DNA of 64,000 nucleotides, from the IMG/VR virus record IMGVR_UViG_3300010050_000018, positions 2,723-66,722 of that record; one strand, given 5' to 3'. A program made the position numbers and the translations under genes. Numbering within the stretch: the first letter of the stretch is position 1; each line of letters opens with the position of its first letter. Positions 1,169-19,914 of this stretch are shown piece after piece. This DNA comes from a virus. Lineage: Duplodnaviria > Caudoviricetes. The notes beneath the pieces were generated by a model. The model was not told where the DNA came from. It searched no databases and worked only from the letters and a program-made list of their open reading frames with translations.

Positions 1169-1844
1169 CGCCGTCGACCTGGTCGATGTTCTGGCGCTCA
1201 ACCTTGAAGGTGGTGACTGTCACCCATGGATTGACGTCCCAACCGTAGCCGCGCTCGCCGTTGAGGCCGTTCCATAGCTTTCGAAACCAGAAGATAGGCG
1301 TGCCCATCTCGTTGAAGCCGACCTGGCACAGGGGATGCCCTATTGTTCCCGGTATCGTCGACACCGGGCAGCCTTCCGCGATCGCGTCGGCCTCGGTGAT
1401 GTCCTGCAGGCGTTCCACCCGCACATCGATGTCGATAAGCGTGATGCGCGACGCCCATCGCGGCATATGCATGCTTTGGCGCAGCCGCCCTACGGTCTTG
1501 TTGTGCTTCCACTCGGCGTCCGCTTCGTAGAGGACGGTTTCCTCGCCGCCCATGTCGGATGGCGCCAGATCGTCATATGCCCGGCTTTCGGTGCGCCAGG
1601 CCTCGCGGACCCACAGCCTGTCGATGCCGACGTGGGGCGGCATCGTCCCCTTCCCGCAGGCACCGCGGTTCGCCTTCGCCCATTCGAAGGCCTGCCACCC
1701 CATGAACCCGGTCCAGACCTCGATCCCATCGGGGCCGTCTCGGAACGCGGTCTGGTCGCCGACGCGTCGGGTCTTCGTTTTCCGGTCGTCGAGCAGCGCC
1801 CGGACCATCGGAGATGAGAAGAGGATGGGGAGATCGCGTTTCAT
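1161..1844 (-). CDS. ASCH/PUA-like phage protein
   Basis: MKRDLPILFSSPMVRALLDDRKTKTRR...LWVREAW...SMHMPRWASRITL...ERLQDITEADAIAEG...NPWV; TGATG overlap with upstream gene. Confidence 0.8.
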   Translation of the reverse strand: MKRDLPILFSSPMVRALLDDRKTKTRRVGDQTAFRDGPDGIEVWTGFMGWQAFEWAKANRGACGKGTMPPHVGIDRLWVREAWRTESRAYDDLAPSDMGGEETVLYEADAEWKHNKTVGRLRQSMHMPRWASRITLIDIDVRVERLQDITEADAIAEGCPVSTIPGTIGHPLCQVGFNEMGTPIFWFRKLWNGLNGERGYGWDVNPWVTVTTFKVERQNIDQVDGDV

Positions 1845-2983
1845 CACGCGACCTCCGGCATGGCGTTGTGCTCGACGCTGTCGAGCAGCCGGCCGGCGCG
1901 CTTTTTGCCGATGCGCGACACGCACTGCTCCTCGTCGTAATTGCCGTCCGAGAAATCGCACCACATGGGCCGGAACGGCTCGCTCCAGCGGCCGTCTTCC
2001 CATTCGCGGTGATCGAAGCGGCTGATCTCCGGACTGTCGTCAATGGTCCATCCATCGACTGCACCTATGTTCGGAGCCCATTCTCCCCACTGCTTGAAAA
2101 AGAAGGCGGTGCCGGCGGCGGCGCACTGGTCGCGCAGCGAGCGAACCCATTGGGGATGCATCGGGCGGGCGCCTTGGCCGCTTTCGCCGCCGACGATGAC
2201 CCAATCGAGCATTGCAGTTCGATACCAGTCGTCAGGGCCCTCTTCGTCGGCATGGACACCCAGTCCGCGAAGAGCATCGAGATCGCCGCGCTCTGTGGTG
2301 AGCAGCGTGTCGATCGGCCCGAGCAGCGGCTCGGCCGAGACGAAACGCACCGCAGCCGGCGTCGCCAGAAGGTCCGGAATGCGTTCGTCGGCGCGTGCCT
2401 GGTCTTCGGTCGAGACGCCCAGCCAGACGTTGGGTAGCGGCCAGGGGACAGAGCAATAGAGGCTGTAGATGTTGCCGCCGTGACTCTTCAGCGTGTCCAT
2501 GTATCCGCCATCGCCCTCCATGTGGTCTGCGGCTTCCAGATGAATGCGCTCGAGCGGCATCCGGCCGAGGTAGGGGATCTTCGACTGGTGACCTTTGATG
2601 TAGGTCCGCATCCGCGCGGGGCGCTTCGTCAGGACTTGGAAGGTGTGTTGCGGTGCCAGCGCCATGACGGCGAAGACCCTGTCGATCCATTCGTCAGGCA
2701 CATTCTCGGCGAACAGGTCGCCATGGGCGCAGACGAAGATGCGGCGCGGCTTGGTCCAGCGCAGGGGCTGGTCGAGCCATTGCTCGTTGAGGCGCACCTC
2801 GCCGGTCCAGACCGGGCCGGCCTTGCTGTCGCGTGTCAGTCCGGCGCGGCTTGGAATGTGCTTCAACCGCGTGCCGGCCAGCTTCATGGCGTAGCAGTTG
2901 GTGCAGCCCGGCGAGACCACGGAACAGCCGGTGATCGGGTTCCAGGTGGCGTCGGTCCATTCGATGAGGGAGTGGTCAGCCAT
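1844..2983 (-). CDS. DUF5131 (phage Gp37/Gp68) radical-SAM-like protein
   Basis: IEWTDATWNPITGCSVVSPGCTNCYA (Cx6Cx2C), HGDLF, FQVLTKRP, SAEPLLG, WVIVGGESG, FFFKQWG. Confidence 0.92.
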   Translation of the reverse strand: MADHSLIEWTDATWNPITGCSVVSPGCTNCYAMKLAGTRLKHIPSRAGLTRDSKAGPVWTGEVRLNEQWLDQPLRWTKPRRIFVCAHGDLFAENVPDEWIDRVFAVMALAPQHTFQVLTKRPARMRTYIKGHQSKIPYLGRMPLERIHLEAADHMEGDGGYMDTLKSHGGNIYSLYCSVPWPLPNVWLGVSTEDQARADERIPDLLATPAAVRFVSAEPLLGPIDTLLTTERGDLDALRGLGVHADEEGPDDWYRTAMLDWVIVGGESGQGARPMHPQWVRSLRDQCAAAGTAFFFKQWGEWAPNIGAVDGWTIDDSPEISRFDHREWEDGRWSEPFRPMWCDFSDGNYDEEQCVSRIGKKRAGRLLDSVEHNAMPEVA

Positions 2984-6745: not shown

Positions 6746-7083
6746 CGCGCCGGGCTCCCCGCAAGACCGCAGTAGCCGAGCTTGATCTCCTCGGGCTTCT
6801 TGACCCCGTTGGTCGGGGTCGAGATCCGCACCTGAGACTCATGGTCAAAGAAAACCGGGCCGACGCCGCCGTTGGGGAAATCGAAGATCGTATGACCTGG
6901 CTTGGCCTCCTGCTTCCATTTCGAGCGGCCCCAGCGCCACATCGCGCAGCTTGTGCCCAGGCAACGAGCAAAGGCATGACCGGTGGCGAGGTCATGCTCC
7001 ATGGGATAACGATTGCAACCAGGGCTGTTGCCGACGCGTGCGAGCGGGCACCACAGCTCCAAGGCTTCCTGTTCGGTGTGCAT
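6742..7083 (-). CDS. Cys-rich phage hypothetical protein
   Basis: WCPLAR...GCNR...CLGTSCAMWRW...GYCGLAG; start MHTEQ shares TGATG with exonuclease stop. Confidence 0.7.
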   Translation of the reverse strand: MHTEQEALELWCPLARVGNSPGCNRYPMEHDLATGHAFARCLGTSCAMWRWGRSKWKQEAKPGHTIFDFPNGGVGPVFFDHESQVRISTPTNGVKKPEEIKLGYCGLAGSPAR

Positions 7084-7892
7084 CAGAACCCCTTCTCCAT
7101 TTCCTTGCGCCAGGCATCGGGGTCGTGCGGCTCCGAGGCGTAGGCATCTTCTGGTCGGGGGCGTGGTTTTGCCGGCGGCGCGGCTGCAGCGCGCTTGCTG
7201 ACCTCTTGGCGGGCGGTGTGAACGACGTCCTCGCGAGCCGGATCCGACGGCATGTTGGATTTGTTCAGGATCCAGTCGAGGTAGCTGTCGGGGATCTCGG
7301 AGAAGCGTTTCCCGCTGTGCTCGCCGAAGTCGATCTTGATCAGGGTGACCGGCTTCCCCGTCATCTCGATCAGCGTTTCGGGCTGATAGATCTTCAGGAG
7401 GTCGAGCAGGATATGCGCGGTGACCCAAGTGTCGGGGCCGGCGCGGTGTGACGGCTCCGTCCTGCTGTCACCGAGGCAGAGGCCTCGCTCATAGCGGATC
7501 GAACCGTTCTTGTGGCTCTGCAGCTCCGGCCATGCCGTCCTCGCCGCCTTGAATGTGCAAATCCATGGCAGGTTGTGACCGCGAACAAATCGGCTGTCGA
7601 AGCTGACATTGTGGGCGCAGAGGATATCGGCACCCTTAACGATCCTGGCTCTGACCTCGTCCGGGTTTTCACCCTGAGCGGCATCGGCTTCGGTGATATG
7701 ATGCACTGCCATCGCCGGGAACGTGATCGGCATGCCGGGATTGACGAGAACGGAGTGCGGTCCGCTCTCGATCTGCCAGCCCGCCAGAAACAACCGGACG
7801 TCGGTCCAACCGATCTCGACCATCTCGGCGGGGTCGTCCATCGCGCTGGTCTCGGTGTCGACGACCCGGATCAGGGTGAAGGGCTCAGCCAC
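7083..7892 (-). CDS. Exodeoxyribonuclease X-like DEDDh 3'-5' exonuclease
   Basis: VDTET (ExoI), CAHNVSFD (ExoII), HRAGPDT (ExoIII), C-terminal FGEHSGKRFSEIPDSYLDWI domain. Confidence 0.9.
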   Translation of the reverse strand: MAEPFTLIRVVDTETSAMDDPAEMVEIGWTDVRLFLAGWQIESGPHSVLVNPGMPITFPAMAVHHITEADAAQGENPDEVRARIVKGADILCAHNVSFDSRFVRGHNLPWICTFKAARTAWPELQSHKNGSIRYERGLCLGDSRTEPSHRAGPDTWVTAHILLDLLKIYQPETLIEMTGKPVTLIKIDFGEHSGKRFSEIPDSYLDWILNKSNMPSDPAREDVVHTARQEVSKRAAAAPPAKPRPRPEDAYASEPHDPDAWRKEMEKGF

Positions 7893-8322
7893 TGGCCCCT
7901 CCGTTCATCAACAGGAACCTGCCGTCATAGAATTCGGAAGCTGGCCGGACGAAGGTGAGGCCGGCTGCGTTGTCGTAGACAACGGCAGCTTCCATGGTGG
8001 CCTCGATGTGGGCGTGGCCGATGACGACCCTATAAAGTCGAAGGGTTTTCAGATGTTGGTGCGTAGGCACCCACGCAATGGACGGAGTGACAGCAGCAGG
8101 GGCACGGCCTTGCTCCTTCAGGGCGCGAAAGAAGCTGTCGCGGGCGCCGGTCTCGATCCGCTTCATCATGCCGTCGAAGTCCGGCCGTTCTGCCATGGCC
8201 GCCGAGGCACCGAGCACCATCGAGAGAGCGATGAAGCATGCGACGGTGTTCCTGCCCTGGAGTACCGCCCCGAGCTCGTTGGCGATATCGACGGCCTCGG
8301 CTGCGATTTCGGTGTTGTCCAT
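7885..8322 (-). CDS. Hypothetical protein (C-terminal YRVVIGHA...VVYD...FVRPASEFYDGRF domain)
   Basis: Coupled ORF starting inside the 24-bp repeat. Confidence 0.65.
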   Translation of the reverse strand: MDNTEIAAEAVDIANELGAVLQGRNTVACFIALSMVLGASAAMAERPDFDGMMKRIETGARDSFFRALKEQGRAPAAVTPSIAWVPTHQHLKTLRLYRVVIGHAHIEATMEAAVVYDNAAGLTFVRPASEFYDGRFLLMNGGASG

Positions 8323-8343
8323 CAGAAGCGCTCCGGGATCGCT
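8320..8343 (-). repeat. 24-bp repeat copy 1 (AGCGATCCCGGAGCGCTTCTGATG on minus strand)
   Basis: Exact inverted copy of 19774-19797. Confidence 0.9.
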
Positions 8344-9038
8344 TCGAGACCGATCTCATCGACGATGGCAGTCGTCGCGCTCTTGCCGGACAGACCCGCC
8401 GGCGGCTCCACGGCATGCAGGGGCGGCGTCTTCGCGAAATGCACCCGAGCCTCAGGGAGCATCCCTGCGGCGTGAAGACGTCGAAAAATCTCCAGCGCTG
8501 CCCTGGCATCGCCACCGGCCGTGTGGATCGCCTCATGGTGGTCGATGCCGAAATGGGCGCAGACATCAGCCAGGCTCGGGAAGCCACCGCGACCGTTGGC
8601 CTTCTTGATCTTCAGCGCCATCGAGGCGCGCATCACGCAGATGTTCGGGGTTTTGTGGAACCGATCGTCCATGCCGGCGCGGCGGAGCTCGCCGCGCATC
8701 TGCTTGCAATCGAACTGGGCGTTGAAGGCGACGATGACGTAGCCGGCGTCGATGACGCGCACATACTGGTCGAGCACTTCGACAACATCGGCGCCGTTCT
8801 CGGCAAGGAAATCGTCGGTGAGACCATTCACGGCCTGCGCCTCGGGCTCCATCTTCCAGCCGTCGGGTTTGACATAAAGATCAATCGCACGCTCTTCATG
8901 GAGCTGCTCGTCGATCAAGATCATGCCGAGATGTGCGAGACGTGGCTGCGACGGATCGTCGGCCGGCACCGGGACGCCGGCGGCATCCTTGTACCGGAAA
9001 AGACCCGATGTTTCCGTGTCGATCACTGCGTATCGCAT
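8322..9038 (-). CDS. DnaQ-like DEDDh 3'-5' exonuclease
   Basis: VIDTETSGL, VAFNAQFD, HTAGGDARA; ends AIPERF. Confidence 0.9.
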   Translation of the reverse strand: MRYAVIDTETSGLFRYKDAAGVPVPADDPSQPRLAHLGMILIDEQLHEERAIDLYVKPDGWKMEPEAQAVNGLTDDFLAENGADVVEVLDQYVRVIDAGYVIVAFNAQFDCKQMRGELRRAGMDDRFHKTPNICVMRASMALKIKKANGRGGFPSLADVCAHFGIDHHEAIHTAGGDARAALEIFRRLHAAGMLPEARVHFAKTPPLHAVEPPAGLSGKSATTAIVDEIGLEAIPERF

Positions 9039-9700
9039 TTTCGTGTCCACTTCCTCAGTTGGGATGGGTTGGTGCGCCTCACGGCGTACAAAACGGCGCT
9101 GTCGGTGATGCCGAATTCGAGCCCGGTTTTGCGTGGCGAGCGCGTCAGCGCATGGGATGCGGCTATTGCTATGTCGCGTTCGACATTTCGACTCGGGTGA
9201 GGTTTTTCCCCGCGCGCGACCGCTGCATTGTGGGCGGCCAAGTTTTCCGGGAAGGACACGCGCCTACGGCGCCCTTCTGCGTAGGCGGCCCGAACACCTT
9301 CACCGATTTTTGCCTTGGATTCTGCATCATGCGGGATGCCGGCCCGGTATTGATTGCCGGAAAGGCTAGCGCTGATCTTCCCACGAGCTTCGGCAGACAT
9401 CGTCAAACCGAGACGCGACGAAGCGTTCACAGCGCGGTTGTAGAGACGCCCCTTAAAGGAATCGAGCCAAGCCTGTTCGCGCTCAACAAGGAGCCGTTCG
9501 TCTTCGACTGTCTCCAGGATCGACGTGACAAGGTTGTCGAGGCCATACTTGTTGGCCGCGCGCTGAAGTAAAATTGAGTGGTGCTTGCCATGCGCCAGCA
9601 GATGTCGGTGCGCGTTCAAGCGAGATCGGTAGCTGCGCGCCGACCCGATGTACTGCCTGTCAGCGCCGACAAACGTGATGGAATAAATGACACCCATCAC
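9023..9700 (-). CDS. Free-standing GIY-YIG homing endonuclease with NUMOD3-like motifs
   Basis: GVIYSIT...YIGSA...R..H; REQAWLD; LYN; MSAEARGKISASLSGN and HDAESKAKIGEG repeats. Confidence 0.88.
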   Translation of the reverse strand: MMGVIYSITFVGADRQYIGSARSYRSRLNAHRHLLAHGKHHSILLQRAANKYGLDNLVTSILETVEDERLLVEREQAWLDSFKGRLYNRAVNASSRLGLTMSAEARGKISASLSGNQYRAGIPHDAESKAKIGEGVRAAYAEGRRRRVSFPENLAAHNAAVARGEKPHPSRNVERDIAIAASHALTRSPRKTGLEFGITDSAVLYAVRRTNPSQLRKWTRKCDTQ

Positions 9701-10056
9701 GCCGCTCCGATGGTTGCGGGTTCAGGATCGATGGCGTCTGGTTCGTCTGCGTCGACCTCGATCCGGAAGCCGGCTATTGCCGTGGCGAGGGCAAAGATCG
9801 TGAGCGGGTCGGTGATCGCCCGCATGTCGCCATCGAGGACCCGCTCCGCGAGATCGACGGCACCGCTGACACTGACCGGCCCCACGATGACACGACCTTG
9901 CTCGTCGGCGAGCAGCAGCTCGCCAGCCGCGTAGGGCACCTCGACGCCGCCATCCTTGGTCAGCACCTTCGTGGTGCCCGGTGCCGCCGCCGACATCAGC
10001 TGGCGCATGCCGCCGTGATAGACATCGATGCCGATGCCATGGATTTCCTTGGTCAT
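9697..10056 (-). CDS. Hypothetical protein
   Basis: Coupled ORF, ATGA overlaps. Confidence 0.7.
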   Translation of the reverse strand: MTKEIHGIGIDVYHGGMRQLMSAAAPGTTKVLTKDGGVEVPYAAGELLLADEQGRVIVGPVSVSGAVDLAERVLDGDMRAITDPLTIFALATAIAGFRIEVDADEPDAIDPEPATIGAA

Positions 10057-10196
10057 TTCGCCCTCACGAGCTTGATCTTCCTGATGTGCGCGGCGTGGCG
10101 TTTTTCGGCTTCGGCCCGCGCCGCCCTGGCGTCGGCGGCGGGGATGTCGATCGTGGTGCCGTCGGCGAAATGGACCCTGAACGTCGGGGCGCTCAT
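10053..10196 (-). CDS. Small hypothetical protein (47 aa)
   Basis: Manual translation MSAPTFRVHFADGTTIDIPAADARAARAEAEKRHAAHIRKIKLVRAK; fills gap with ATGA overlaps at both ends. Confidence 0.65.
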   Translation of the reverse strand: MSAPTFRVHFADGTTIDIPAADARAARAEAEKRHAAHIRKIKLVRAK

Positions 10197-10609
10197 GACC
10201 GGATGTCCCCGTGCACCTGGATCGGGACCTGGACGGCCTCGCGTCTCGGAATGCTCCGCACGTTCATCGGTGCTTCTTGGCTCGCTTGGTTGGGTTCCAA
10301 CGCAACCAAGGCGTCCTGGCTCGACCGGATCAGCCGCTTTCTGGTCTCGATCTCGTGGTCGGCGCCGCGCGTTGTCGCGTCGATCTGCGCTAGGATGCCG
10401 GCGCGCCGTGCCTCGAATTCGCGGGTGGCCTCGGCGAGTTCGGCGTCCAGGCGCCGGAGCGTGACATCGCGGTCACGCTCCATCGTCAGGACGGCACGTT
10501 CGTTGCGGCTGATCGCGTCGTGGTGAATCCTGGCCTGCTTGGCGATCGGATCATCAGACGGTGGCTGGCTGCGCAGTGCCGCGCAAACACTCTCTCCCCT
10601 CTCGTCCAT
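10193..10609 (-). CDS. Coiled-coil hypothetical protein
   Basis: GAGGAG RBS; helical composition. Confidence 0.65.
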   Translation of the reverse strand: MDERGESVCAALRSQPPSDDPIAKQARIHHDAISRNERAVLTMERDRDVTLRRLDAELAEATREFEARRAGILAQIDATTRGADHEIETRKRLIRSSQDALVALEPNQASQEAPMNVRSIPRREAVQVPIQVHGDIRS

Positions 10610-10614
10610 GGCGA

Positions 10615-11805
10615 TTACTCGGCCTCCTCTGAGCCCGGCTCAGGTGCATCTGCTTCGGCTTCGTCATCGAAGCCGGCGAGATAGGCTTCTAGCTCGGCCT
10701 TGCGGTCGTCAGCCTTCAGGCCAGCCGGCACAGCGTTGCGGCCGAGGCCACGGCGGTAAGCCGCCCTGCCCTTCCGGGTCGCCACGACGATAGGGTCGCC
10801 GTCGTCCGACGGGGTGGGGGGCGAGGGGTCGCCGGACGACGGCTGTTGCCCGGTAGCAGTCGCAGCCTTCGGCGTTGATGCCTGCTTTCCGGACTCGGAG
10901 CCGGTGGAGGAGCCGGCTTCCGAATTCTTGGGCGCTCCTGCGGCGCCATCCTTGTTCTTGTCGGCGGCGAGCTGCTCGAGCCGCCCTTTGAGGCTGCCCG
11001 GCTTCTCGCCGGGCTGGCGCTTGACTGGGAACATCTCCTCGACAGTGGCCTCACCGCTGCGAAGGGCCTGGTGCATGCCGATCAGCGTGATGTACTGGTC
11101 TGGGCCGATATCATCGACGCCCGCGATTCCGAGGGCCTCGAATAGCTGTTCCGGCTTGACGCCGAATGCGGCAAAGGCCTTCAGGGCATCCTCGCGCTTT
11201 TCCGCCATGGTCATGATGTCGCCGACAAGGACCTGCTCGACGGCCGCATAGGCCCGGCGCCAAACCGCCTTGGGGACACCGCCCAGGATCGCGTTGCGCT
11301 TCGCGATGGACGCAGCCGCGTTGCCGGTGACGATGATCATGTCCTCGGTGAGGAGCCGATTTTCTTTGTCGGACAGCCGCCGGCGGACTCTGGATGTCGT
11401 CGCCGAATTCGTCTCGAGGTCATGGAATATGCCTTCGGCCTCGACGTATTTTTCGATGCGGTCGACATGGACGACACGGGTGCCGGTGCGATTGTTCCCC
11501 CATTGGCTCTGGATGATCTCGGCGAGACGGATCGACGGTCCCCGGATGGGCTTGTTGCCACGCGGAAGCGCATAGATGCACTCCTTCGCGGTTTCCTCGT
11601 CGAGAGTGGCCAGCGCCAGAATGTTCTTAACAGCGCGATCGACGCTGCGCGGATAAGCATGGGCTGTGGTGATCTGCTGGTCGACCTCGGCCATGGCCAT
11701 GCTGACGGCGAGGCTTTGGTTTCCGGTCTGGTATCCGGCTGGCAGGCCGGTCGTGAGCTCGCCGGTTTCTGGATCGTGGGGCGGCGTGCGTGCGGGTATG
11801 TTCAT
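10615..11805 (-). CDS. Putative ssDNA-annealing (RecT-like) recombination protein
   Basis: EVDQQITTAHAYPRS...CIYALPRGNKPIRGPSIRLAE...WGN motif; same operon as YqaJ exonuclease. Confidence 0.65.
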   Translation of the reverse strand: MNIPARTPPHDPETGELTTGLPAGYQTGNQSLAVSMAMAEVDQQITTAHAYPRSVDRAVKNILALATLDEETAKECIYALPRGNKPIRGPSIRLAEIIQSQWGNNRTGTRVVHVDRIEKYVEAEGIFHDLETNSATTSRVRRRLSDKENRLLTEDMIIVTGNAAASIAKRNAILGGVPKAVWRRAYAAVEQVLVGDIMTMAEKREDALKAFAAFGVKPEQLFEALGIAGVDDIGPDQYITLIGMHQALRSGEATVEEMFPVKRQPGEKPGSLKGRLEQLAADKNKDGAAGAPKNSEAGSSTGSESGKQASTPKAATATGQQPSSGDPSPPTPSDDGDPIVVATRKGRAAYRRGLGRNAVPAGLKADDRKAELEAYLAGFDDEAEADAPEPGSEEAE

Positions 11806-11833
11806 CGCAATGGTCTCCTGTTACCGGGGCCGA

Positions 11834-12631
11834 TCAGCCGCGGATCTGGGTTTTGGTCTCAGGCATGAAATCGACGCCGGCGAGTGGGGCGGTGCCCTTG
11901 TTCTGCTTCGCGTAGGCCGCCAGTGCCCTATCGATTGCCTCGACGTTGAAGGGGCCGTATCCGCGCAGCTTGTTGAGATCGATCTTCGAGTAATCGGTGA
12001 CCCGGTAGGTCCAGGACGTGCGCTGCGAAACCGTGCCGGCCTCGGTGCGCGTCGGACCTTTGCCGGCGGTCAATGCTGCGTTTTCGAGCACCGCCGCCTT
12101 GTTCTCGGCGGTGGATGCCTCCTGCAGTGCGATGTCGGACAAAACCGAGTGGCCGGATGCTGCGGCCTCGTCGAGCTTGCGATTGGCAAGGGCCCTGGCC
12201 GCGTCGGCCTCGGCAGCAGCCTTCCGCTTTTCTGCCTCGCGCTTCTCGTTGTCGTACCGGCCGACGACAGTGTCGGCGAACTTCTTCATCAAGTTGCAGC
12301 GGTACTTCAGTGAGCCCTCAACCGGCTTGTCGGTGCCGAAGAGGCTGTTCCATTCGTTGACCTCGATGCGCAGCGGCTCGATGACTTTGGCGCGCTTCTC
12401 GTCGATCGACGCCGCCAGTTTGGCAGCGGTCACACCGATCTGGATGAAGGTGTCGCGCTCGTTGTCATTTGCGATGACGTCGGCCGAGAGTTCCGCTCGA
12501 GCGCCGTTGGCGCGCGTCGCCAGAGCTTCGACGTCGTCGATGAGGTCCTTGAACCGATCCCGGAAGACATCGGCAGTGGTCGCGAGGTTGTGTCCTGGTC
12601 CCGCTATGGATGGGGCGTCAGAAACCTGCAT
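11834..12631 (-). CDS. Coiled-coil recombination-module protein (Gam/Gp157-like position)
   Basis: PGHN N-terminus, long helical body; lies between exonuclease and annealing protein. Confidence 0.6.
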   Translation of the reverse strand: MQVSDAPSIAGPGHNLATTADVFRDRFKDLIDDVEALATRANGARAELSADVIANDNERDTFIQIGVTAAKLAASIDEKRAKVIEPLRIEVNEWNSLFGTDKPVEGSLKYRCNLMKKFADTVVGRYDNEKREAEKRKAAAEADAARALANRKLDEAAASGHSVLSDIALQEASTAENKAAVLENAALTAGKGPTRTEAGTVSQRTSWTYRVTDYSKIDLNKLRGYGPFNVEAIDRALAAYAKQNKGTAPLAGVDFMPETKTQIRG

Positions 12632-13571
12632 TGAGGTTCTCCCTTGGCTTGATGCGCAACACGCGCGTTGCGGTGCCGTCGCCGCGCACCGATGTCCGGG
12701 CGCTGAGCGACCAGCGTTCGGTTTCTCCGATCTCGGCGGTGCCGAGGACGTGGAAGATCATTGCGCGGAGCCGGGCCGCGACTGCGGCCTGCTGCGTCTC
12801 CGTCGCCTTGGCCTGGACGTATTGGCCGGCGAGATCGTCGACGGCCGGATCATTGGTGAGATCCTTCCGTTCCGGCAAGCTCTGCCGGAGGACATCGAGA
12901 ACAGCGTCGGCGTCTCGATCCCAGTCCGGATCAGGGGTCCGGCCGCTGGCGATCATTTCCCAGAAGGCGTCGACCTTCTCGACGAGCCGTTCCCAGAACA
13001 GGAAATTGTCGAGCGGGATGTCGATGATGGGTTCTAAACGGAACGTGCCGCGCCTCGTCAGCACCACCACGGCAACACAGGCCCAAGGGCATTTCGTCAG
13101 CGTGGCTTCAATGATCGCCTGAATCGCGATCCAAGTCGGCGGGATGATGGCGCCGTCTTCCGGATCGACTTCCCAGAATTTCTCGAAGGCGTCCTCGGAG
13201 ACGCTCTTGATCTGCATGATGCCGGTGCCGCGCCTGTCGGGGCGGACGACGAAAGCATCCGGTGTCGCCCCAATGCGGGTGTCGGGATCACGGTAGTAGA
13301 CCGGGTTCTCGCCGTCGTAGCCGATGACCCAAGCCGGATGACGCTTCTGCACCATCTTGACGACGACGGGTTCCATCAGGATCCCGCGCTCCATGGCATC
13401 AGAAGGTTCACCGTCGGGCGACCGCCGGCCCGTCTTCTCGGCCCACAGCTCGTAGAGCGACATGTAGGGGTCGACGCCGAACAGGGCGCCGGCCACGCTC
13501 GCGGTGACGTCTTGGGTGCGCGCGGCAAGCCAGGCCACGCGGTCGGCTGGACGGATGACCTCGATCGTCAT
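12618..13571 (-). CDS. YqaJ / lambda-exonuclease family viral recombinase
   Basis: WLAARTQDVTASVAGALFGVDPYMSLYELWAEKTG; GILME; ATPDA; QIKS; WIAIQ. Confidence 0.92.
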   Translation of the reverse strand: MTIEVIRPADRVAWLAARTQDVTASVAGALFGVDPYMSLYELWAEKTGRRSPDGEPSDAMERGILMEPVVVKMVQKRHPAWVIGYDGENPVYYRDPDTRIGATPDAFVVRPDRRGTGIMQIKSVSEDAFEKFWEVDPEDGAIIPPTWIAIQAIIEATLTKCPWACVAVVVLTRRGTFRLEPIIDIPLDNFLFWERLVEKVDAFWEMIASGRTPDPDWDRDADAVLDVLRQSLPERKDLTNDPAVDDLAGQYVQAKATETQQAAVAARLRAMIFHVLGTAEIGETERWSLSARTSVRGDGTATRVLRIKPRENLNAGF

Positions 13572-13870
13572 GCCGCCCTCCCCGACCCACGCTTGCTGCG
13601 CTGACGCCACTCGCCATCTGGAACGGCACGGCAGAGATAGGAGCGGATGCTGCTCTTCGGGACCTGGCGACCAAGCGCTTTGAATATCGCATCGACGTCC
13701 GGATTGTCGCGGTATGCAGCCAGCACGCGCTGGCGCTGCGTCACGATACGGGCGAGGCCTAGCTTGGCAACGTTGGCGTCGTCGAGCACCACCGGCAGAC
13801 CTGCCCCATGCAACATGTCGCGGACTTCGCTGTCGGTAAAACGGGTGAACGGGCTCTCCATCATGCCCAC
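13568..13870 (-). CDS. Hypothetical protein
   Basis: Coupled ORF. Confidence 0.6.
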   Translation of the reverse strand: MGMMESPFTRFTDSEVRDMLHGAGLPVVLDDANVAKLGLARIVTQRQRVLAAYRDNPDVDAIFKALGRQVPKSSIRSYLCRAVPDGEWRQRSKRGSGRAA

Positions 13871-14154
13871 CCCTCAAGGTACTTGCAGATCGCGTCGTAG
13901 ATTTGCCTGCGCTCATCGCGCGTTTCGGGTTCAAAGCCGCTACCTGCCGGCCAGCCCTCGACCTCCATCGCCATCTTGGCGGCGTCGAGCAACTGCTCAA
14001 CGCAATCGGTGCCGAAGGGGCCGGCCATCGAGCCATCTCCTTCACGGGCGAACCGCAGCAGTTCAGCGCATGCATCGGCTGACTGTGATGCTGCAGCGAT
14101 CGCGAGGTCTCGGTTTCTGATTTCGGCTTCTGTGGTCGGGGCGATGTCGATCAT
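13861..14154 (-). CDS. Hypothetical protein
   Basis: Coupled ORF, acidic helical. Confidence 0.7.
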   Translation of the reverse strand: MIDIAPTTEAEIRNRDLAIAAASQSADACAELLRFAREGDGSMAGPFGTDCVEQLLDAAKMAMEVEGWPAGSGFEPETRDERRQIYDAICKYLEGWA

Positions 14155-14297
14155 TGCCGCACCTGTCGGCGGATGTGGCAGTGGCCGAGCCGGCGCCAGA
14201 ATGCCTCGTACCGATCGGCATCGACCAGTTCGGCAAACCGCCGCTCGAACATCGGCGACGGCGGCATCGTCAGCGCAAAAATGGTGATCGTGATCAT
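14151..14297 (-). CDS. Small hypothetical protein (48 aa)
   Basis: Manual translation MITITIFALTMPPSPMFERRF...RQVRQ; ATGA overlaps on both sides. Confidence 0.5.
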   Translation of the reverse strand: MITITIFALTMPPSPMFERRFAELVDADRYEAFWRRLGHCHIRRQVRQ

Positions 14298-14485
14298 GAC
14301 CGGACCTCGCCGGTCTTGGGCTTGCGGTAGCCGAGGCGGACCTCGAAGGTCTTGACGACCTCGGCGAGCTGCTGCTGGCGGTTCATGCCGTTTCGCTTCG
14401 CCCAGTTCAGGACGACGAAGGCGTCGTCGGCGAGCGCGAGAAGCTGTCCGCTGCTGAGGCGAGTGGTCAGGGATGGGGCGGCCAT
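14294..14485 (-). CDS. Small hypothetical protein
   Basis: Coupled ORF. Confidence 0.6.
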   Translation of the reverse strand: MAAPSLTTRLSSGQLLALADDAFVVLNWAKRNGMNRQQQLAEVVKTFEVRLGYRKPKTGEVRS

Positions 14486-14838
14486 CAGAGCACCGCCGCG
14501 ATCATGGCGATGGCAACAAGTCCGCCGGCGACAAGGACAAGCCGTTCAACGATGGTAAACATTGGCGCGGCTTCGACTGGCAGCGCCTCGTATGGCAACG
14601 CCTCGGACAGCGCGTAGTCGGCCGGTGCCGACTGTTCGAACGCCATGACATCGAGGTCGTCGAACAGGTCGCCGGGCCTGGGCTCGATCGAGGGGGCGTC
14701 GACGACCATGTGCCCGAAGACATGCCCGCGCCGCACCATCTCATCGACGAACCGCGCCGACGAAATCACGCCGAGATCGGACCAAGCGCGGAGCTGGCCA
14801 TCGGAAACATGCGACAGATCAACATACTCGCTCATCAC
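14485..14838 (-). CDS. Hypothetical protein with C-terminal hydrophobic segment
   Basis: Coupled ORF; ends LVLVAGGLVAIAMIAAVL. Confidence 0.6.
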   Translation of the reverse strand: MMSEYVDLSHVSDGQLRAWSDLGVISSARFVDEMVRRGHVFGHMVVDAPSIEPRPGDLFDDLDVMAFEQSAPADYALSEALPYEALPVEAAPMFTIVERLVLVAGGLVAIAMIAAVL

Positions 14839-15020
14839 AGCGTCTCCTCGATGCGGGTGATCTGCTGCTGGATGTGGTCGACGAGGATCTTCGCAGCGGT
14901 CGTCTCGAGCTTGCGGCGGACGAAATCGTCGATCATGTCGGCGCAGACCAGGGCACGTTCCGCACGGCTGAGATCCGCCCTGAGGTCTTCCAGCGTTGGC
15001 GCGATTGAGGGCGCGTCCAT
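14835..15020 (-). CDS. Small coiled-coil protein
   Basis: MDAPSIAPTLEDLRADLSRAERAL... Confidence 0.6.
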   Translation of the reverse strand: MDAPSIAPTLEDLRADLSRAERALVCADMIDDFVRRKLETTAAKILVDHIQQQITRIEETL

Positions 15021-15021
15021 G

Positions 15022-15330
15022 TCAGCGGCCCTCCGCTGCGTTGATAGCCGCATGGATGGCATGCGCCGTTCGGGCATAGGGAAAATGCTCGGCGCCAGCA
15101 GGTATGCCATCCAGTGGCCAGCAGGGTGCGACCAGTTTCAGCGCCGCCAGCATTGTCGGGGCGGCCTGCTCACGGGTGATCGCCAGGCGCAGGCCGGCAA
15201 GGATGTCGGTGACGTTGTCCAGGAGCGGATCGCCCTCGAAGCCGCTGATGAAGGCTTCGGCTTGAACCAGTGCGTCAATGGTGTCGTTGGCGTCGTCGGC
15301 GCCGAGCGGGATGGCGACGGCGGCGATCAT
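15022..15330 (-). CDS. Hypothetical protein
   Basis: Start MIAAVA in TGATG overlap with preceding ORF. Confidence 0.6.
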   Translation of the reverse strand: MIAAVAIPLGADDANDTIDALVQAEAFISGFEGDPLLDNVTDILAGLRLAITREQAAPTMLAALKLVAPCWPLDGIPAGAEHFPYARTAHAIHAAINAAEGR

Positions 15331-15482
15331 CAGAACCACCCCTTGATAGCCTCGGCGCCACAGGCCGAGAGGATGGTCCAGGTCGCCGGGAAGATCAGGA
15401 AGGCGAAGAACGCCTTGCCGAGGTCAGACATCAGTCCGGCCAGATCGTCGGTTTCGGGGTGGCGTCGTGGGGTCGTTGGCAT
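15330..15482 (-). CDS. First gene of PL operon, 50-aa membrane protein
   Basis: AAGGAG RBS; MPTTPRRHPETDDLAGLMSDLGKAFFAFLIFPATWTILSACAEAIKGWF (manual translation). Confidence 0.6.
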   Translation of the reverse strand: MPTTPRRHPETDDLAGLMSDLGKAFFAFLIFPATWTILSACGAEAIKGWF

Positions 15483-15502
15483 CGGATTTCTCCTTTGCCC
15501 CA

Positions 15503-15531
15503 AGACTTTCCCAAAACGGGGAAGTCGTCAA
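15503..15531 (-). promoter_or_regulatory. Putative PL promoter TTGACG-N17-AAGTCT with operator TTCCCAAAACGGGGAA (15508-15523) in spacer
   Basis: Same architecture as PR; directly upstream of the first leftward gene. Confidence 0.7.
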
Positions 15532-15540
15532 GTCCTTCAG

Positions 15541-15556
15541 TTCCCATTATGGGGAA
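15541..15556. promoter_or_regulatory. Repressor operator TTCCCATTATGGGGAA
   Basis: Semi-palindrome, 15/16 identical to operator at 16621. Confidence 0.8.
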
Positions 15557-15611
15557 TATTTTTTTGGGCGCCTTTCCCGGTCGGGAAGCATGCGCTCGCG
15601 CGGAAGTGCTA

Positions 15612-15772
15612 GTCCTGATTCGTAGAGCGCTGCAGCAGTGGGTGCGAAAGCACCCACACTGAGAAGCAGCGGGACACAGATTCGGTGAAAGGTTGAGCTC
15701 GACGAGAATCGTAGAACGAGACTTGAGAGGTCTAAACGTAGAGCTCTATGTTAGAAGTTTATACTCACCGGG
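15612..15772 (+). ncRNA. Candidate structured non-coding RNA between PL and cI 3' end
   Basis: Nested helices, GAAA tetraloop, G-U pair and A-rich loops favouring the + strand; no convincing ORF. Confidence 0.4.
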
Positions 15773-15825
15773 CGCGTGCGTGAGGGCGCGCGGTTAGACC
15801 GCACGCCCCGCCGAAGTCAATGCGC

Positions 15826-16560
15826 TCACAGATGAATTTTTTGACCCTCGTCGAGATCAAAAATCGCCTTGCCGAAGAGACTGTATGACCCGGTCACATA
15901 GGCGATGATTCTGATCTCCTCGCCCTCGACGATACCGTCCTTGGGGATGACGATCGGCTTGTGGTGCGGGTTGGTCGACTCCGGCACCAGGGCGATGCCA
16001 CCAGGTTCTTCCCAGTATCGCTTGATCGTTCGTTCCCGCTCCTGGCCGTCGAACCGCATACGCTCGACCACGACGATATCGCCGGTTTCAATGGGCCTGT
16101 AGTGCTCGACGAAATCCACATAGTCGACGCCGACAGCAAACATCCCGTCATGGATGCCGGCCTTGTTCATGGAATCCCCGAGGACCTGCCAGACATACTG
16201 GCGGGCGCGGCGGTACCGCGGATCCGGCGATATCGCCACAGCCTGCGGCTCATGGTTGGCATGCAGCTCGACGTCGACGAAGACACCTGCCTGCGTTGTG
16301 CCGGCGTAAGGGAGAAATCCAGCGCTATCCGGCACCGACTGCGGGGCATCCCCATCCGATGACCACTCCTCGTCATCGGCGATGACAAACTGCACCGGAA
16401 CCCCGAATGCGCGCGATGCTCGAAGGATGTAGTCCTCGTTGAGGCGCCTCTCACCGCGCTCGAGCTTGATGTACTGGCCGCGCGAAATGCTCATCGCAGC
16501 AGCGGCGTCATCATGCGTCATCCCTTTGGATTCGCGGATTCTTTTGAGTTGATTACCCAT
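15826..16560 (-). CDS. cI: CI-like repressor, XRE HTH plus S24 peptidase
   Basis: LKRIRESKGMTHDDAAAAMSISRGQYIKLERGERR; AG site in TTQAGV; GDSM (Ser) and TIKR (Lys) dyad; start may be up to 16617. Confidence 0.93.
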   Translation of the reverse strand: MGNQLKRIRESKGMTHDDAAAAMSISRGQYIKLERGERRLNEDYILRASRAFGVPVQFVIADDEEWSSDGDAPQSVPDSAGFLPYAGTTQAGVFVDVELHANHEPQAVAISPDPRYRRARQYVWQVLGDSMNKAGIHDGMFAVGVDYVDFVEHYRPIETGDIVVVERMRFDGQERERTIKRYWEEPGGIALVPESTNPHHKPIVIPKDGIVEGEEIRIIAYVTGSYSLFGKAIFDLDEGQKIHL

Positions 16561-16568
16561 AACGGGAT
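16553..16568. promoter_or_regulatory. Degenerate operator overlapping cI start codon
   Basis: Reverse complement ATCCCGTTATGGGTAA matches TTCCCATTATGGGGAA at 13/16. Confidence 0.55.
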
Positions 16569-16610
16569 TTCTATCACGCACCGCTGCCGCGAACATTCCC
16601 CAAAATCCGC

Positions 16611-16640
16611 TTGACAATCTTTCCCATAATGGGGAAGTCT
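16611..16640 (+). promoter_or_regulatory. Putative PR promoter TTGACA-N18-AAGTCT with operator TTCCCATAATGGGGAA (16621-16636) in spacer
   Basis: Directly upstream of cro ATG with no RBS, implying leaderless mRNA. Confidence 0.75.
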
Positions 16641-16647
16641 AGCGGCC

Positions 16648-16866
16648 ATGAAACTTTCAGATTTCATCGAGCAGAATGGTTTGACCCACGAACAGATGGC
16701 CGAACGTGTCGGCGATTGCTCGGTGTCTGGCCTTCGAAAATGGCTTCGCGGCGAACGCGTGCCCAGGCCTGATCAGATGAGAAAGATTGCTGAAATCACG
16801 AACGGGCAGGTCAGCCCGAACGACTTCTATGGTTTCACGTCCCCTGCGCCTGAGGCTGCCGAATGA
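16648..16866 (+). CDS. cro: Cro-like HTH repressor
   Basis: Divergent from cI; LTHEQMAERVG...SVSGLRKWLRGERVPRPDQMRKIAEITNGQV. Confidence 0.9.
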   Translation: MKLSDFIEQNGLTHEQMAERVGDCSVSGLRKWLRGERVPRPDQMRKIAEITNGQVSPNDFYGFTSPAPEAAE

Positions 16867-17084
16867 GCACCCTGCGCGAAACTGTTGGCCTCAACATCAG
16901 GGCCGCCCGGCATCATCGGGGGCTCAAACAATGTGAGCTCGCCGAACTGGTTGGCATCCATTGGACGAACATGAACCGCATCGAGCAGGGGCGATCGTCA
17001 GTCAACCTGGATCGTCTGCAGCAGATTTCAACCATCCTCGACATTCCCGCTCACGGCCTTCTGATCCGGGAGCTGTCCCAATGA
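16863..17084 (+). CDS. XRE-family HTH regulator
   Basis: NIRAARHHRGLKQCELAELVGIHWTNMNRIEQG. Confidence 0.88.
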   Translation: MSTLRETVGLNIRAARHHRGLKQCELAELVGIHWTNMNRIEQGRSSVNLDRLQQISTILDIPAHGLLIRELSQ

Positions 17085-17231
17085 TGTTCAGCGCCACCAG
17101 CGTGTTGTGCGGCCGCCGGCATCTTGCCGGCTTGGTGGCCCCCTCGCTTTCCCAGCTGGTGGTGGCAGGCCGTTTCTCTGTCCGCTCATCTGCTTTCGTC
17201 TCCAACTCCGTCGCTGGAAATGGAGATAGCA

Positions 17232-17726
17232 ATGTTCGGTTCGGACCTCTCGGAAACGTCTTCGCAGCGCTCAGAAAGATTTTCGGAGCTCTCCGAAAAT
17301 CGGTCAAGCGCTGGCAGCCAGGGCGGTCGTCAAATGTCTAGCGCGTCGATCGCCCATGGCCTGACCGTTGAGATCGGCGAGATCGTCGCGCCCGGCGCGA
17401 ACTGGAAAGCCCAGATCACTGCGGTTTACGCTGGCCTGACAGATCCGAAATTTCCGCATCGGCTAACTGATCTGACTTGGAACCGCGTGAAATCGTGGTT
17501 CTATGGCGAGGCGCGGCGGGCCGACTATCATGAAGTACTCGCGCTGCAGGAACTGCGCGCGATCGAGGAGGCCAGACGTGCCAAGCTTAAACTCGCCGCC
17601 ACGGCGAACATTCTGGCAGCTCATCTTGCCGCGGAGGGCGCGCCGCTGGATGGCCACCAAATGCGTGCTCTGGGCCGACTCGCTGGCGCATTGGATCTAT
17701 CCGGAACTGGCGGAGACGCCAGATGA
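17232..17726 (+). CDS. Putative CII-position transcriptional regulator
   Basis: GGAG RBS; LTWNRVKSWFYGEARR HTH-like segment; position after cro. Confidence 0.6.
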   Translation: MFGSDLSETSSQRSERFSELSENRSSAGSQGGRQMSSASIAHGLTVEIGEIVAPGANWKAQITAVYAGLTDPKFPHRLTDLTWNRVKSWFYGEARRADYHEVLALQELRAIEEARRAKLKLAATANILAAHLAAEGAPLDGHQMRALGRLAGALDLSGTGGDAR

Positions 17727-18574
17727 GCGCCTCGAAGCCATGGCTGGCGATGACGCCGGAGCAGCGGATCTCGGAGGTCCGTCTTCTCCTTGAACAGGGC
17801 CACGCCCCCGGCACCATAGCCTGGAAACTCAGGGCACGACCATCGGCGATAACCAGTGTCGTCCGGGCAATCCGGAAAGCCGACGGCGCACCTCACGTAG
17901 AAGTCTCCCCACCTGCCATACCTGATGCCCCACTCCGGTGGGAGGTGCTCACCAGTGAGGAACGCGACGCGGCCGTGCTGGCGCTGCGCGCCGAGGGCCT
18001 TTCCGCATCCCAGGTAGCGGACCGGCTGGCGACGACACGAAATGCCATCGTCGGCTACATGCACCGGATGACGGAAGCCGGCGTCGACGTCCCGGGCCGC
18101 AAATCTCCGAAACGCTCGCGCGCCGCCAAGGCGCCGGTTCCGCCGAAGATGGCGAGGCAAGCAGTTGCTCCGAAGCAGGCTCCAAAACGCGACAAGGTCT
18201 TGCGCAAGAGCGCCGCCGGCAGCGTCGAAGTTGCCCCGATGCGCGGCCCCAACAATCCTCACCCATTCGATTTCAAGGCGCGCGCCGAGCAGCGCGCGTC
18301 ATCACCCGGCCTGGCCCCTGCGCTCATCGCCGGGGTCCCGATGCGCCCCGTCGACGATGATACCGCGCCTGAATCCAAACGCCTCGCCCTGGTCGAGCTC
18401 ACTGCCACGACCTGTAGATGGCCGAGCGGTGACCCACGGGCCGAAGACTTCGGTTTCTGTGGCCACGACGTCTCCGACTCCCCGTACTGCCCTTACCACA
18501 AGCGCCTTGCCCACGAGCCCCCCACAACACGCCAGCGCGCCGAGATCCGCTCGGCTGAAAGGAAGTTCGCATGA
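17723..18574 (+). CDS. gcrA: GcrA-family cell-cycle regulator
   Basis: EGLSASQVADRLATTRNAIVGYMHR (GcrA N-terminal HTH) and LVELTATTCRWPSGDP...FGFCG...PYCPYH (GcrA C-domain). Confidence 0.9.
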   Translation: MSASKPWLAMTPEQRISEVRLLLEQGHAPGTIAWKLRARPSAITSVVRAIRKADGAPHVEVSPPAIPDAPLRWEVLTSEERDAAVLALRAEGLSASQVADRLATTRNAIVGYMHRMTEAGVDVPGRKSPKRSRAAKAPVPPKMARQAVAPKQAPKRDKVLRKSAAGSVEVAPMRGPNNPHPFDFKARAEQRASSPGLAPALIAGVPMRPVDDDTAPESKRLALVELTATTCRWPSGDPRAEDFGFCGHDVSDSPYCPYHKRLAHEPPTTRQRAEIRSAERKFA

Positions 18575-19089
18575 CCGTTCATGAGCGTCCCAACCGCGCC
18601 TCGGCCAAAGAAGCTGCCTCTTTCGTCGAAGAGTTCGATCGCCTCGAGCAGGTTCGCGAGGAAAAGCTCCGGCTCCTCGAAGCCGACTTCAAGACGAAGA
18701 AGCGTGCGATCCAGAAAGAGGTCGACGGCGACCAGGCCGTGCTGCTCGCCGATGCGAAAAAGCAGGGCGTCAACAAGGGCGTCATCCGAGCGCTGACCGA
18801 CGCCCAGAAGATCAAGCGTAAGGCCGAGGCGATGCTGGAGCGCGCCGAGGGCAAGGTCGACGGCCTCGATGACGACGACCGCGAATTCGCCGTCGACATC
18901 CGCACCGCCCTTGGCGACGACTTCGCCGGCTTCGGCCTCGGCGCCGCTGCCGTGGCTCGTGAAGAACCCACCCAGGAACCCAACAAGCCCGACGCCACGA
19001 CGGCCGCCGTGATCGCGGCCGTCAAGGAGAACATGACCGACAGGGATTGGGACAACGCCGCACCGGCGGCCGAAACCGTCGAGGCCTGA
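18571..19089 (+). CDS. Putative GapR/DUF2312-like DNA-binding protein
   Basis: SFVEEFDRLE...LADAKKQGVNKGVIRAL resembles GapR SIIERVERLE...YAEAKGNGFDVKVLKK with an inserted coil. Confidence 0.5.
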   Translation: MTVHERPNRASAKEAASFVEEFDRLEQVREEKLRLLEADFKTKKRAIQKEVDGDQAVLLADAKKQGVNKGVIRALTDAQKIKRKAEAMLERAEGKVDGLDDDDREFAVDIRTALGDDFAGFGLGAAAVAREEPTQEPNKPDATTAAVIAAVKENMTDRDWDNAAPAAETVEA

Positions 19090-19141
19090 AACTACCTGAC
19101 CAGGCCGGGAAAGTAGCGGCCAAACCTATTCAGAGGCAAAC

Positions 19142-19795
19142 ATGACCGCACCGCGCATTCTTGCAATCGATGCCGCAGCCCATTTCGGCTGGGCGTATGG
19201 TCCCATCGGCTCGATCCCGAAATCGGGTGCCCAGTACTTCGCGAAATCTGGCGCCGGCGCCAGCTACCCGAACGTCATGCTGGGAGCGTTGCGCTGGACG
19301 ACAGATTTCATCACCGCTTACCCGGTCGACTGCCTGTTCGTCGAACGCGCACTTCTAGACGGCGCCGTCGATAACTCAAACTACAAGACATCCGAGATGA
19401 AAAACGGCCTGATCGCCGTGATCATCGCAACAGCTCGGCTGCTTGGCGTCAGGAATCAAATCGTCGTCATCGACGGCGTACGCGGTGAGCATCGGATCTA
19501 CCTGTCAACGATCCGGTCCAAATTCCTCCCGAAGAAACCGAAAGGTGTCGAGCCGAAGCCGCTGGTCCGCCAGAAGTGCATTGATCTGGGCTGGATCAGC
19601 CAGGAGGACGCCCTCGCCGACAAGGGCTTCGACCGCACCGATGGCTTGGCGATCTGGTACTGCGGCTGTCTCCTGGTCGATCCCATGAAAGCCCCGCCGG
19701 TCGACCCGCTTTTCCTCGCCGCTGCCCGTCGGCAGCGCGAAGCCGAGGAGTTCGCTCAACGCAACGCGAAACCAGCGATCCCGGAGCGCTTCTGA
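19142..19795 (+). CDS. RuvC-like Holliday junction resolvase
   Basis: RILAIDA..FGWAYG, LFVER, FDRTDGLAIW acidic RNase H-fold motifs; ends AIPERF. Confidence 0.75.
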   Translation: MTAPRILAIDAAAHFGWAYGPIGSIPKSGAQYFAKSGAGASYPNVMLGALRWTTDFITAYPVDCLFVERALLDGAVDNSNYKTSEMKNGLIAVIIATARLLGVRNQIVVIDGVRGEHRIYLSTIRSKFLPKKPKGVEPKPLVRQKCIDLGWISQEDALADKGFDRTDGLAIWYCGCLLVDPMKAPPVDPLFLAAARRQREAEEFAQRNAKPAIPERF

Positions 19796-19797
19796 TG
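19774..19797 (+). repeat. 24-bp repeat copy 2 (AGCGATCCCGGAGCGCTTCTGATG)
   Basis: Exact inverted copy of 8320-8343. Confidence 0.9.
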
Positions 19798-19914
19798 CAG
19801 ATCCGAGTCCCTCATTCCGTCAGCGACGCCCTCGCCTTCATCGTGCTCGTCGCGGCTGTTGCCCTGATCATCGGGGTCATCACCGGCATCATCGTGCCAG
19901 TGGAGCCACGATAG
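19795..19914 (+). CDS. 39-aa single-pass membrane protein
   Basis: Manual translation MQIRVPHSVSDALAFIVLVAAVALIIGVITGIIVPVEPR; TGATG coupling. Confidence 0.6.
   Translation: MQIRVPHSVSDALAFIVLVAAVALIIGVITGIIVPVEPR

Follow-up and report, generated by a model that had tools for sequence, protein, structure and literature searches.

An exact inverted repeat around a phage genetic switch as the probable trace of a C-terminal peptide shared by two nucleases

Why should an exact 24-bp inverted repeat close two nuclease genes on either side of a phage genetic switch? The question is posed by a stretch of 64,000 nucleotides, here called the window, which belongs to a 66.7-kb provirus record (IMG/VR record IMGVR_UViG_3300010050_000018); the phage encodes GcrA-like and CtrA-like regulators, its closest homologs are found in Aminobacter and Mesorhizobium, and its source is a temperate phage of the Aminobacter/Mesorhizobium type. 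The repeat, AGCGATCCCGGAGCGCTTCTGATG, occurs twice in the window, once on each strand (Table 1), with no third copy at three or fewer mismatches and no match in 100 dinucleotide shuffles; identity ends at both edges of the 24-mer and the flanks diverge immediately. An original prediction made from the letters of the window had offered two readings: that the encoded peptide docks both nucleases on one hub, or that recombination between the copies inverts the 11.4-kb block between them. The comparisons presented here indicate that two unrelated nucleases carry one short C-terminal peptide, most likely as a shared docking tag, and that the repeat is probably its trace in the DNA.

Two nucleases and their C-terminal peptide

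Read in frame, each copy ends one gene and opens the next. The TGA stops lie at 19793-19795 (copy 2) and 8324-8322 (copy 1), and the A of each TGA is the first base of the following ATG (TGATG; 19795-19797 and 8322-8320), which begins the gene for a 39-amino-acid membrane peptide in copy 2 and a 145-amino-acid open reading frame (ORF) in copy 1. The copies bracket a cI gene (15826-16617, minus strand; S24 peptidase and helix-turn-helix, HTH, domains) and two cro-like HTH genes (16648-16866 and 16863-17084, both plus strand). The original prediction was therefore accurate in its description of the locus: an exact repeat with only two copies, each consisting of AIPERF, a stop, and the ATG of the next gene, with identity ending at the edges, on either side of cI/cro. 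The first nuclease gene, for a DnaQ-like protein, ends the leftward early operon, and the second, for a RuvC-like protein, ends the rightward early operon.

The DnaQ-like label, assigned before any database search, is upheld by a match to Pfam RNase_T (Table 1), and residues D3, E5, D106, H168, and D173 are invariant in 31 homologs. The exonuclease domain covers approximately residues 1-195; a variable linker then leads to the tail ..VDEIGLEAIPERF-COOH. The RuvC-like protein has no match in Pfam, PHROG, NCBIfam, or PDB sequences, and its profile gave nothing useful against PDB chains; because no curated RuvC sequence model matched, it is filed as RuvC-like by fold only, and on that basis the label holds. 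Its AlphaFold2 model, built from 12 homologs with a predicted local distance difference test (pLDDT) score of 83, finds as top Foldseek matches the RuvC structures 7xhj, 6lw3, 1hjr, and phage 4ktw (probability 1.0, target TM 0.69-0.77). D10, E68, D164, and D167 are invariant in the 12 homologs and would correspond, by spacing rather than superposition, to the catalytic tetrad of E. coli RuvC. The layout is a core (residues 1-180), a VDPLF motif (187-191), a helix (189-208), and the tail ..KPAIPERF-COOH.

A C-terminal pattern of hydrophobic-P-E-x-F-COOH is kept in both families, down to approximately 42% identity among RuvC-like proteins and 38% among DnaQ-like proteins, in phages whose GC content ranges from 35% to 63%. 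Ten of 11 RuvC-like homologs (42-95% identity) end [AST][ILV]PE[RHQ]F, one of them as AIQERF; the exception, P0013, is truncated directly after the VDxLF motif and has no tail. From 905 DnaQ-like homologs the C-termini of the best 120 were compared: about 60 end [ILMVFW]P[ED]xF behind linkers that vary in length and sequence, and the others terminate soon after the exonuclease domain. The RuvC-like tail, with a pLDDT of approximately 51 in the model, is likely disordered; together with the differing DnaQ-like linkers, this gives the peptide the character of a flexible terminal segment behind a variable linker.

The codons for the peptide differ among relatives. The RuvC-like tail is encoded as GCC ATT CCG GAG CGG TTC in provirus G003 and the tail of provirus G004 as ACA GTT CCG GAG CGT TTC, while the A. 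carboxidus record (G001) has GCA ATC CCG GAG CGG TTC and TCG GTT CCA GAG CGC TTC; locus L195 uses ATC CCA GAG AGG TTC and loci L197-199 use ATC CCG GAA AGG TTC. The peptide is also kept where the stop/start overlap is absent, as in G007 (CCT GAA AGC TTC TAG), G008 (CCA GAT TCA TTT TAG; 35% GC), L195 (TGAAATG), and L197-199 (GAA, TGAAGTG). The DnaQ-like protein of G003 ends RSERF. Homologs thus keep IPERF with synonymous changes in several codon sets, which supports the docking peptide and supplies the first half of what the original prediction had named as refuting inversion, namely a conserved peptide under different codons together with an absence of inverted molecules. These comparisons show that the AIPERF-type peptide is under selection at the protein level; the tail has been retained over the long term in both proteins, whereas their linkers and most other genes have diverged.

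The ending is gained or lost in both proteins together, although the two are unrelated: at each of the 18 IMG/VR loci with both genes, a terminal Phe is present in both products or in neither (nine with, nine without). The end pairs at the nine Phe loci, DnaQ-like first, include SERF/PERF, PESF/GAPF, VGSF/NMRF, TGSF/GDLF, and LGSF/DLRF. P0013 and P0096 are both tail-less, and their contigs are both listed at 46,857. Within the window, four of five early nucleases end in Phe, versus none of the other 22 among 27 early ORFs; the four are the YqaJ-type (..NAGF), DnaQ-like, ExoX-like (..EKGF), and RuvC-like proteins. Closer relatives also conserve the tails of the YqaJ and ExoX-like proteins, and most group I relatives retain the terminal Phe of the YqaJ exonuclease.

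That all four Phe-ended early proteins are nucleases would also be expected if the tail were a degradation tag keeping potentially harmful nucleases short-lived, and many tail-less DnaQ-like homologs end ..AA or ..VA, as ssrA-type tags do. We know of no protease that reads ..PExF-COOH, and the co-occurrence of the tail with the ExoX-like gene, described below, is not expected of a tag read by a host protease; a degradation tag is therefore considered unlikely.

Tail-less members of both families have endings of their own. Most tail-less DnaQ-like exonucleases (P0038-P0133; loci L021-L098) end ..AA, ..VA, or ..AAA, resembling ssrA tags; a few end ..DEIPQ or ..DEIPA, like single-strand DNA-binding protein (SSB), and some RuvC-like relatives end ..IEDIPL or ..IEDIPE. 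Both families seem to have, in their C-terminus, a hot spot for terminal tags of alternative kinds.

Several observations weigh against a shared docking tag. The tree of the exonuclease core is compatible with one clade, and hence a single origin, of the tailed DnaQ-like proteins, so that few independent events may lie behind the co-variation and the ExoX association. Beyond the closest relatives the tails differ (PESF with GAPF; xGSF with DLRF), and the feature strictly shared there is little more than the terminal Phe. Codon usage would give the hexapeptide the same codons in both genes only about 0.8% of the time. The sole complex model, made with the host clamp, engaged VDPLF and not the AIPERF tail. 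The docking peptide of the original prediction is thus sustained as a peptide that is conserved, differently encoded, co-varying, and set behind variable linkers; for the hub to which it would recruit the nucleases there are candidates. The tail would act as a flexible docking device, both enzymes binding a single receptor by way of its terminal Phe and free carboxylate.

Identity of the two DNA copies

An inversion switch would give the repeat a direct role in DNA rearrangement: recombination between the copies would flip the cI/cro block and swap the distal genes driven by its promoters. The exact inverted repeat does bracket the switch, exchange within it would preserve both reading frames and both TGATG overlaps, and the phage carries its own module of exonuclease and annealing protein for recombination. 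Relatives lack the DNA identity, however, which is specific to this phage; the two tails of G001 share only short runs such as TTCTGATG, and a search of IMG/VR and JGI metagenome contigs did not find the 24-mer. All related records examined are collinear with the window, and the inverted orientation that the original prediction suggested looking for among related prophages was seen in none of G001, the IMG/VR proviruses G003 and G004, or L196-199. The order common to these records is ExoX-like, 145-amino-acid ORF, DnaQ-like, and further on annealing protein, coiled-coil protein, YqaJ, cI, and cro, continuing rightward to GcrA-like, RuvC-like, regulator, and terminase genes; in G004, G067, and G068 the DnaQ-like gene is absent and the RuvC-like tail is kept. 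Pfam scans of 20 ORFs in or beside the 8.3-19.8 kb block detected no serine invertase or resolvase and no tyrosine recombinase or integrase. A length of 24 bp is, moreover, at the lower limit for homologous recombination. Given the differing codons, the collinear records, and the lack of an invertase by Pfam, the inversion proposed originally is not borne out and is regarded as highly improbable.

The resemblance to the Hin, Gin, and Cin inversion systems is confined to short inverted repeats flanking a segment. Unlike in those systems, there is no Pfam invertase between the copies, the repeat is not conserved, no second orientation is seen, and the repeat lies within coding sequence. Near the left end of the window, a 379-amino-acid ORF (1844-2983, minus strand) matches DUF5131 (Pfam 3e-95) and no integrase family.

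A second nucleotide-level explanation is that the conserved element is a translational-coupling cassette (GGAG, 8 nt, TGATG), with the peptide as a by-product. In both copies (8328-8335, minus strand; 19782-19789, plus strand) the Pro-Glu codons CCG-GAG place a GGAG 8 nt ahead of the overlapping ATG; TGATG is retained in G001, G003, G004, G005, and G006, and the DnaQ-like gene of G003 retains GGAG (TCG GAG) despite the change from Pro to Ser. The peptide nevertheless persists in G007, G008, L195, and L197-199, where the cassette is missing, so coupling is not the whole story; in addition, a cassette has no use for the hydrophobic residue ahead of Pro or for the terminal Phe, both of which are conserved. 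That the peptide is only a by-product of coupling is thus quite unlikely, less so than inversion.

The coupling signal does bear on why the two copies are identical. The original prediction attributed the DNA identity to codon bias. From the codon usage of the window, the chance that two independent codings of AIPERF match is P ~0.008, which makes codon bias alone a weak explanation and calls for some extra cause; if the Pro and Glu codons are fixed by the GGAG ribosome site, P rises to ~0.05. Both copies use common codons, CCG-GAG doubles as the ribosome-binding site of the coupled next gene, and TTC-TGA-TG supplies its stop/start overlap. The extra cause could be the ribosome-site constraint, luck, or short-patch gene conversion, in this phage, of one tail by the other. 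The locus also carries a caution: an exact inverted repeat around a switch can arise from convergence at the protein level together with codon and ribosome-site constraints, with no role in DNA rearrangement.

Candidate receptors for the tail

In a screen of gene content, the ExoX-like gene is the only family whose presence follows the tail, being found in 12 of 13 tail-bearing records and in none of 12 tail-less ones; the single tail-bearing record lacking it is 66% complete. Among phage proteins the ExoX-like protein is the leading candidate for the hub; among host proteins it is the beta sliding clamp. As the actual receptor, the ExoX-like protein or a complex containing it is put forward tentatively; the clamp, or equally another host factor, is a weaker prospect, and the annealing protein or coiled-coil module is weaker still. 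In closer relatives (L201-L203) the ExoX-like protein ends (V/H)DPDAWRK(E/D)..(K/R)xF-COOH, and its VDP resembles the VDPLF of the RuvC-like protein and the SVDPLP of many DnaQ-like linkers.

Other phage proteins were considered as tail-specific hubs and set aside. The 265-amino-acid coiled-coil protein is alike in tail-bearing and tail-less phages, the annealing protein and YqaJ exonuclease also occur in tail-less phages, and this phage encodes neither an SSB nor a clamp. The model of the 265-amino-acid protein matches only generic helical bundles in PDB and BFVD, sequence searches of it and of the YqaJ protein against PDB chains gave nothing useful, and the ESM Atlas returned only unnamed viral clusters for it and for the 396-amino-acid annealing protein. 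Mimicry of a host protein was sought by scanning two Aminobacter genomes for ..PExF-stop, where matches were no commoner than with a reversed-pattern control and no DNA-metabolism protein ended PExF; the loci inspected were an apparent KdpF-like membrane peptide, judged by eye, and one 434-amino-acid ORF with no assigned function.

The host clamp was modelled as a complex of Aminobacter carboxidus DnaN, aligned with 34 alphaproteobacterial clamps, and residues 181-217 of the RuvC-like protein. The interface score ipSAE is 0.62, versus 0.08 for the best control; at least 93% of contacts recur between runs, with a partner pLDDT of 66 or more. Of 80 solved complexes 58 attain the ipSAE mark applied, as do 2 of 110 mismatched pairs, and the pass may reflect the abundance of clamp-peptide complexes among solved structures. 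Contacts are made by clamp residues 177, 179-182, 248, 252-253, 350-352, 366, and 368, which correspond, by E. coli numbering, to the canonical peptide cleft. On the partner side the interface consists of residues 188-198, which comprise DPLF and the first part of the helix; the tail is not among them. The model supports binding of the RuvC-like C-terminal region to the host beta clamp through VDPLF.

A [TS/D]-P-L-F motif near the C-terminus, at a median of 6 residues from the end, is present in 78 of 143 full-length representatives (P0256-P0404) of the phage RuvC-like family, which comprises 1091 matches. The wide distribution of [TS]PLF makes it a family-wide candidate clamp motif, to which the helix and tail would be a lineage-specific addition; TFPLF of UmuD may be a precedent for an xPLF clamp motif. 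If true, a clamp-bound [TS]PLF would tie phage junction resolution to the host clamp.

The tail could itself be a clamp-binding peptide that occupies the dimer's other cleft as an additional or alternative motif, which would make the clamp the hub. The modelled binding of the RuvC-like C-terminal region is in its favor, as are clamp-motif-like tails in some members (QPSMDF in P0089, QADLRF, and TGDLF), the first comparable to QTSMAF of E. coli epsilon, and the SVDPLP just upstream of many DnaQ-like tails, which is like the PVDPLF of the RuvC-like protein. In the model, however, it is D188-F191 and the helix after them that occupy the cleft, and residues 212-217 do not; AIPERF has neither the Gln nor the Leu-Phe pair found in the canonical clamp motif, and tail presence follows phage gene content even though a clamp exists in every host. 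The known use of the host clamp by phages (PMC12867686) is a further point for this explanation, which on balance is doubtful.

Related docking systems and neighboring genes

Replisomes and repair machines choose enzymes through short terminal docking peptides. A new tail common to a proofreading-type exonuclease and a junction resolvase would mark a physical link between the two early operons of a lambda-like phage, and it offers a simple handle for identifying its partner. One functional parallel is in phage T7, where the tails of gp2.5 (SSB) and gp4 (helicase-primase) end in Phe and dock on the gp5 polymerase; the terminal aromatic residue is essential and the tails bind one receptor. As in T7, unrelated phage DNA-metabolism proteins bear similar flexible C-terminal tails with a terminal aromatic residue; unlike in T7, where the tails are strongly acidic and the receptor is known, the tail here is the non-acidic ..KPAIPERF, it is carried by nucleases, and its receptor is a candidate only.

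In phage lambda, the C-terminal domain of Red-beta binds both lambda Exo and the tip of bacterial SSB, ..DDDIPF (PMC6393309). The tail of the two nucleases shares with the SSB tip Ile-Pro ... Phe-COOH after a disordered linker, and other lineages of both nuclease families end ..EDIPL or ..DEIPA; the host SSB ends DLDDEIPF. The nuclease tail differs in the E-R/S inserted between Pro and Phe, and in a reversed polarity, since here the enzymes bear the tail instead of reading it. With ..KPAIPERF and ..GLEAIPERF, the tails lack the acidic run and (I/L)PF-COOH of an SSB-tip mimic.

In the clamp tool-belt, one ring holds several DNA enzymes by their short terminal peptides (PMC9690074). In the complex model, VDPLF of the RuvC-like protein occupies the canonical cleft, as do the beta-clamp motifs QL[SD]LF and QLxLxL; AIPERF, by contrast, is off the consensus and is not the part modelled there, the residues named in the cleft being 188-198 and the placement of the others uncertain. 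The AIPERF tail appears to function like the T7 tails, the SSB tip, and the clamp motifs while by sequence it is a member of none.

A wider arrangement can be imagined, though we hold it with considerable reserve as a whole: nucleases with Phe-COOH tails, in part of VDP type, would assemble as a tool-belt on one hub and process recombination or replication intermediates. Its members would be the lambda-Exo-type 5'-3' exonuclease, two 3'-5' exonucleases, and the RuvC-like resolvase; its hub would be the ExoX-like C-terminal domain or the host beta clamp; and hydrophobic-P-E-x-F-COOH would be a previously undescribed docking code in phages of 35%-63% GC.

Table 1. Features of the window in and around the copies of the inverted repeat.
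Feature	Position	Strand	Remarks
ExoX-like DEDDh exonuclease	7083..7892	-	weak QSregVF_b-like C-terminal domain; tail ..DPDAWRKEMEKGF-COOH
145-amino-acid ORF	7885..8322	-	TGATG-coupled to DnaQ-like gene; weak DUF1653 match
Inverted-repeat copy 1	8320..8343	-	last base of Glu codon, codons A-I-P-E-R-F, TGA, overlapping ATG
DnaQ-like DEDDh 3'-5' exonuclease	8322..9038	-	Pfam RNase_T 1.6e-17, phrog_192 1.5e-29
Probable single-strand annealing protein, 396 amino acids	10615..11805	-	phrog_3657 core, RMF-like C-terminal domain, acidic end
Coiled-coil protein, 265 amino acids	11834..12631	-	small alpha/beta C-terminal domain; always between exonuclease and annealing protein
YqaJ / lambda-exonuclease-type 5'-3' exonuclease, 485 amino acids	12618..14075	-	Pfam YqaJ 6e-13; ends ..KPRENLNAGF-COOH
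Genetic switch between repeat copies	15826..17084		cI-like repressor (-) and two Cro/HTH genes (+)
RuvC-fold resolvase-like protein, 217 amino acids	19142..19795	+	AlphaFold2 model and Foldseek
V-D-P-L-F, residues 187-191, candidate beta-clamp motif of RuvC-like protein	19700..19714	+	complex model; distinct from shared tail
Inverted-repeat copy 2	19774..19797	+	last base of Pro codon, codons A-I-P-E-R-F, TGA, overlapping ATG
39-amino-acid hydrophobic peptide gene	19795..19914	+	TGATG-coupled to RuvC-like gene; conserved in G004

The annealing protein has a composite relationship to RecT. In G003, G005, and G006 a RecT protein with the same C-terminal part occupies its position, and the 396-amino-acid protein shares its C-terminal 100-200 residues with RecT proteins (L009:14254-15423, L102:3875-4987), including the RMF-like domain KG..A..G..R.A.P...W..GF and the acidic end; this looks like an annealing domain swapped on a constant C-terminal part.

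A GIY-YIG nuclease gene (9023-9700, minus strand) overlaps the start region of the DnaQ-like gene. It has no counterpart in the close relatives G001, G003, and G004, and thus probably represents a recent insertion of a homing-type endonuclease. The coding strand is ambiguous between the YqaJ gene and cI, where an ORF at 14473-15612 (plus strand) competes with small ORFs that span 14294-15110 on the minus strand; in the same interval, G001 and G003 have a small minus-strand ORF that ends ..RLEETF, with TGATG after it.

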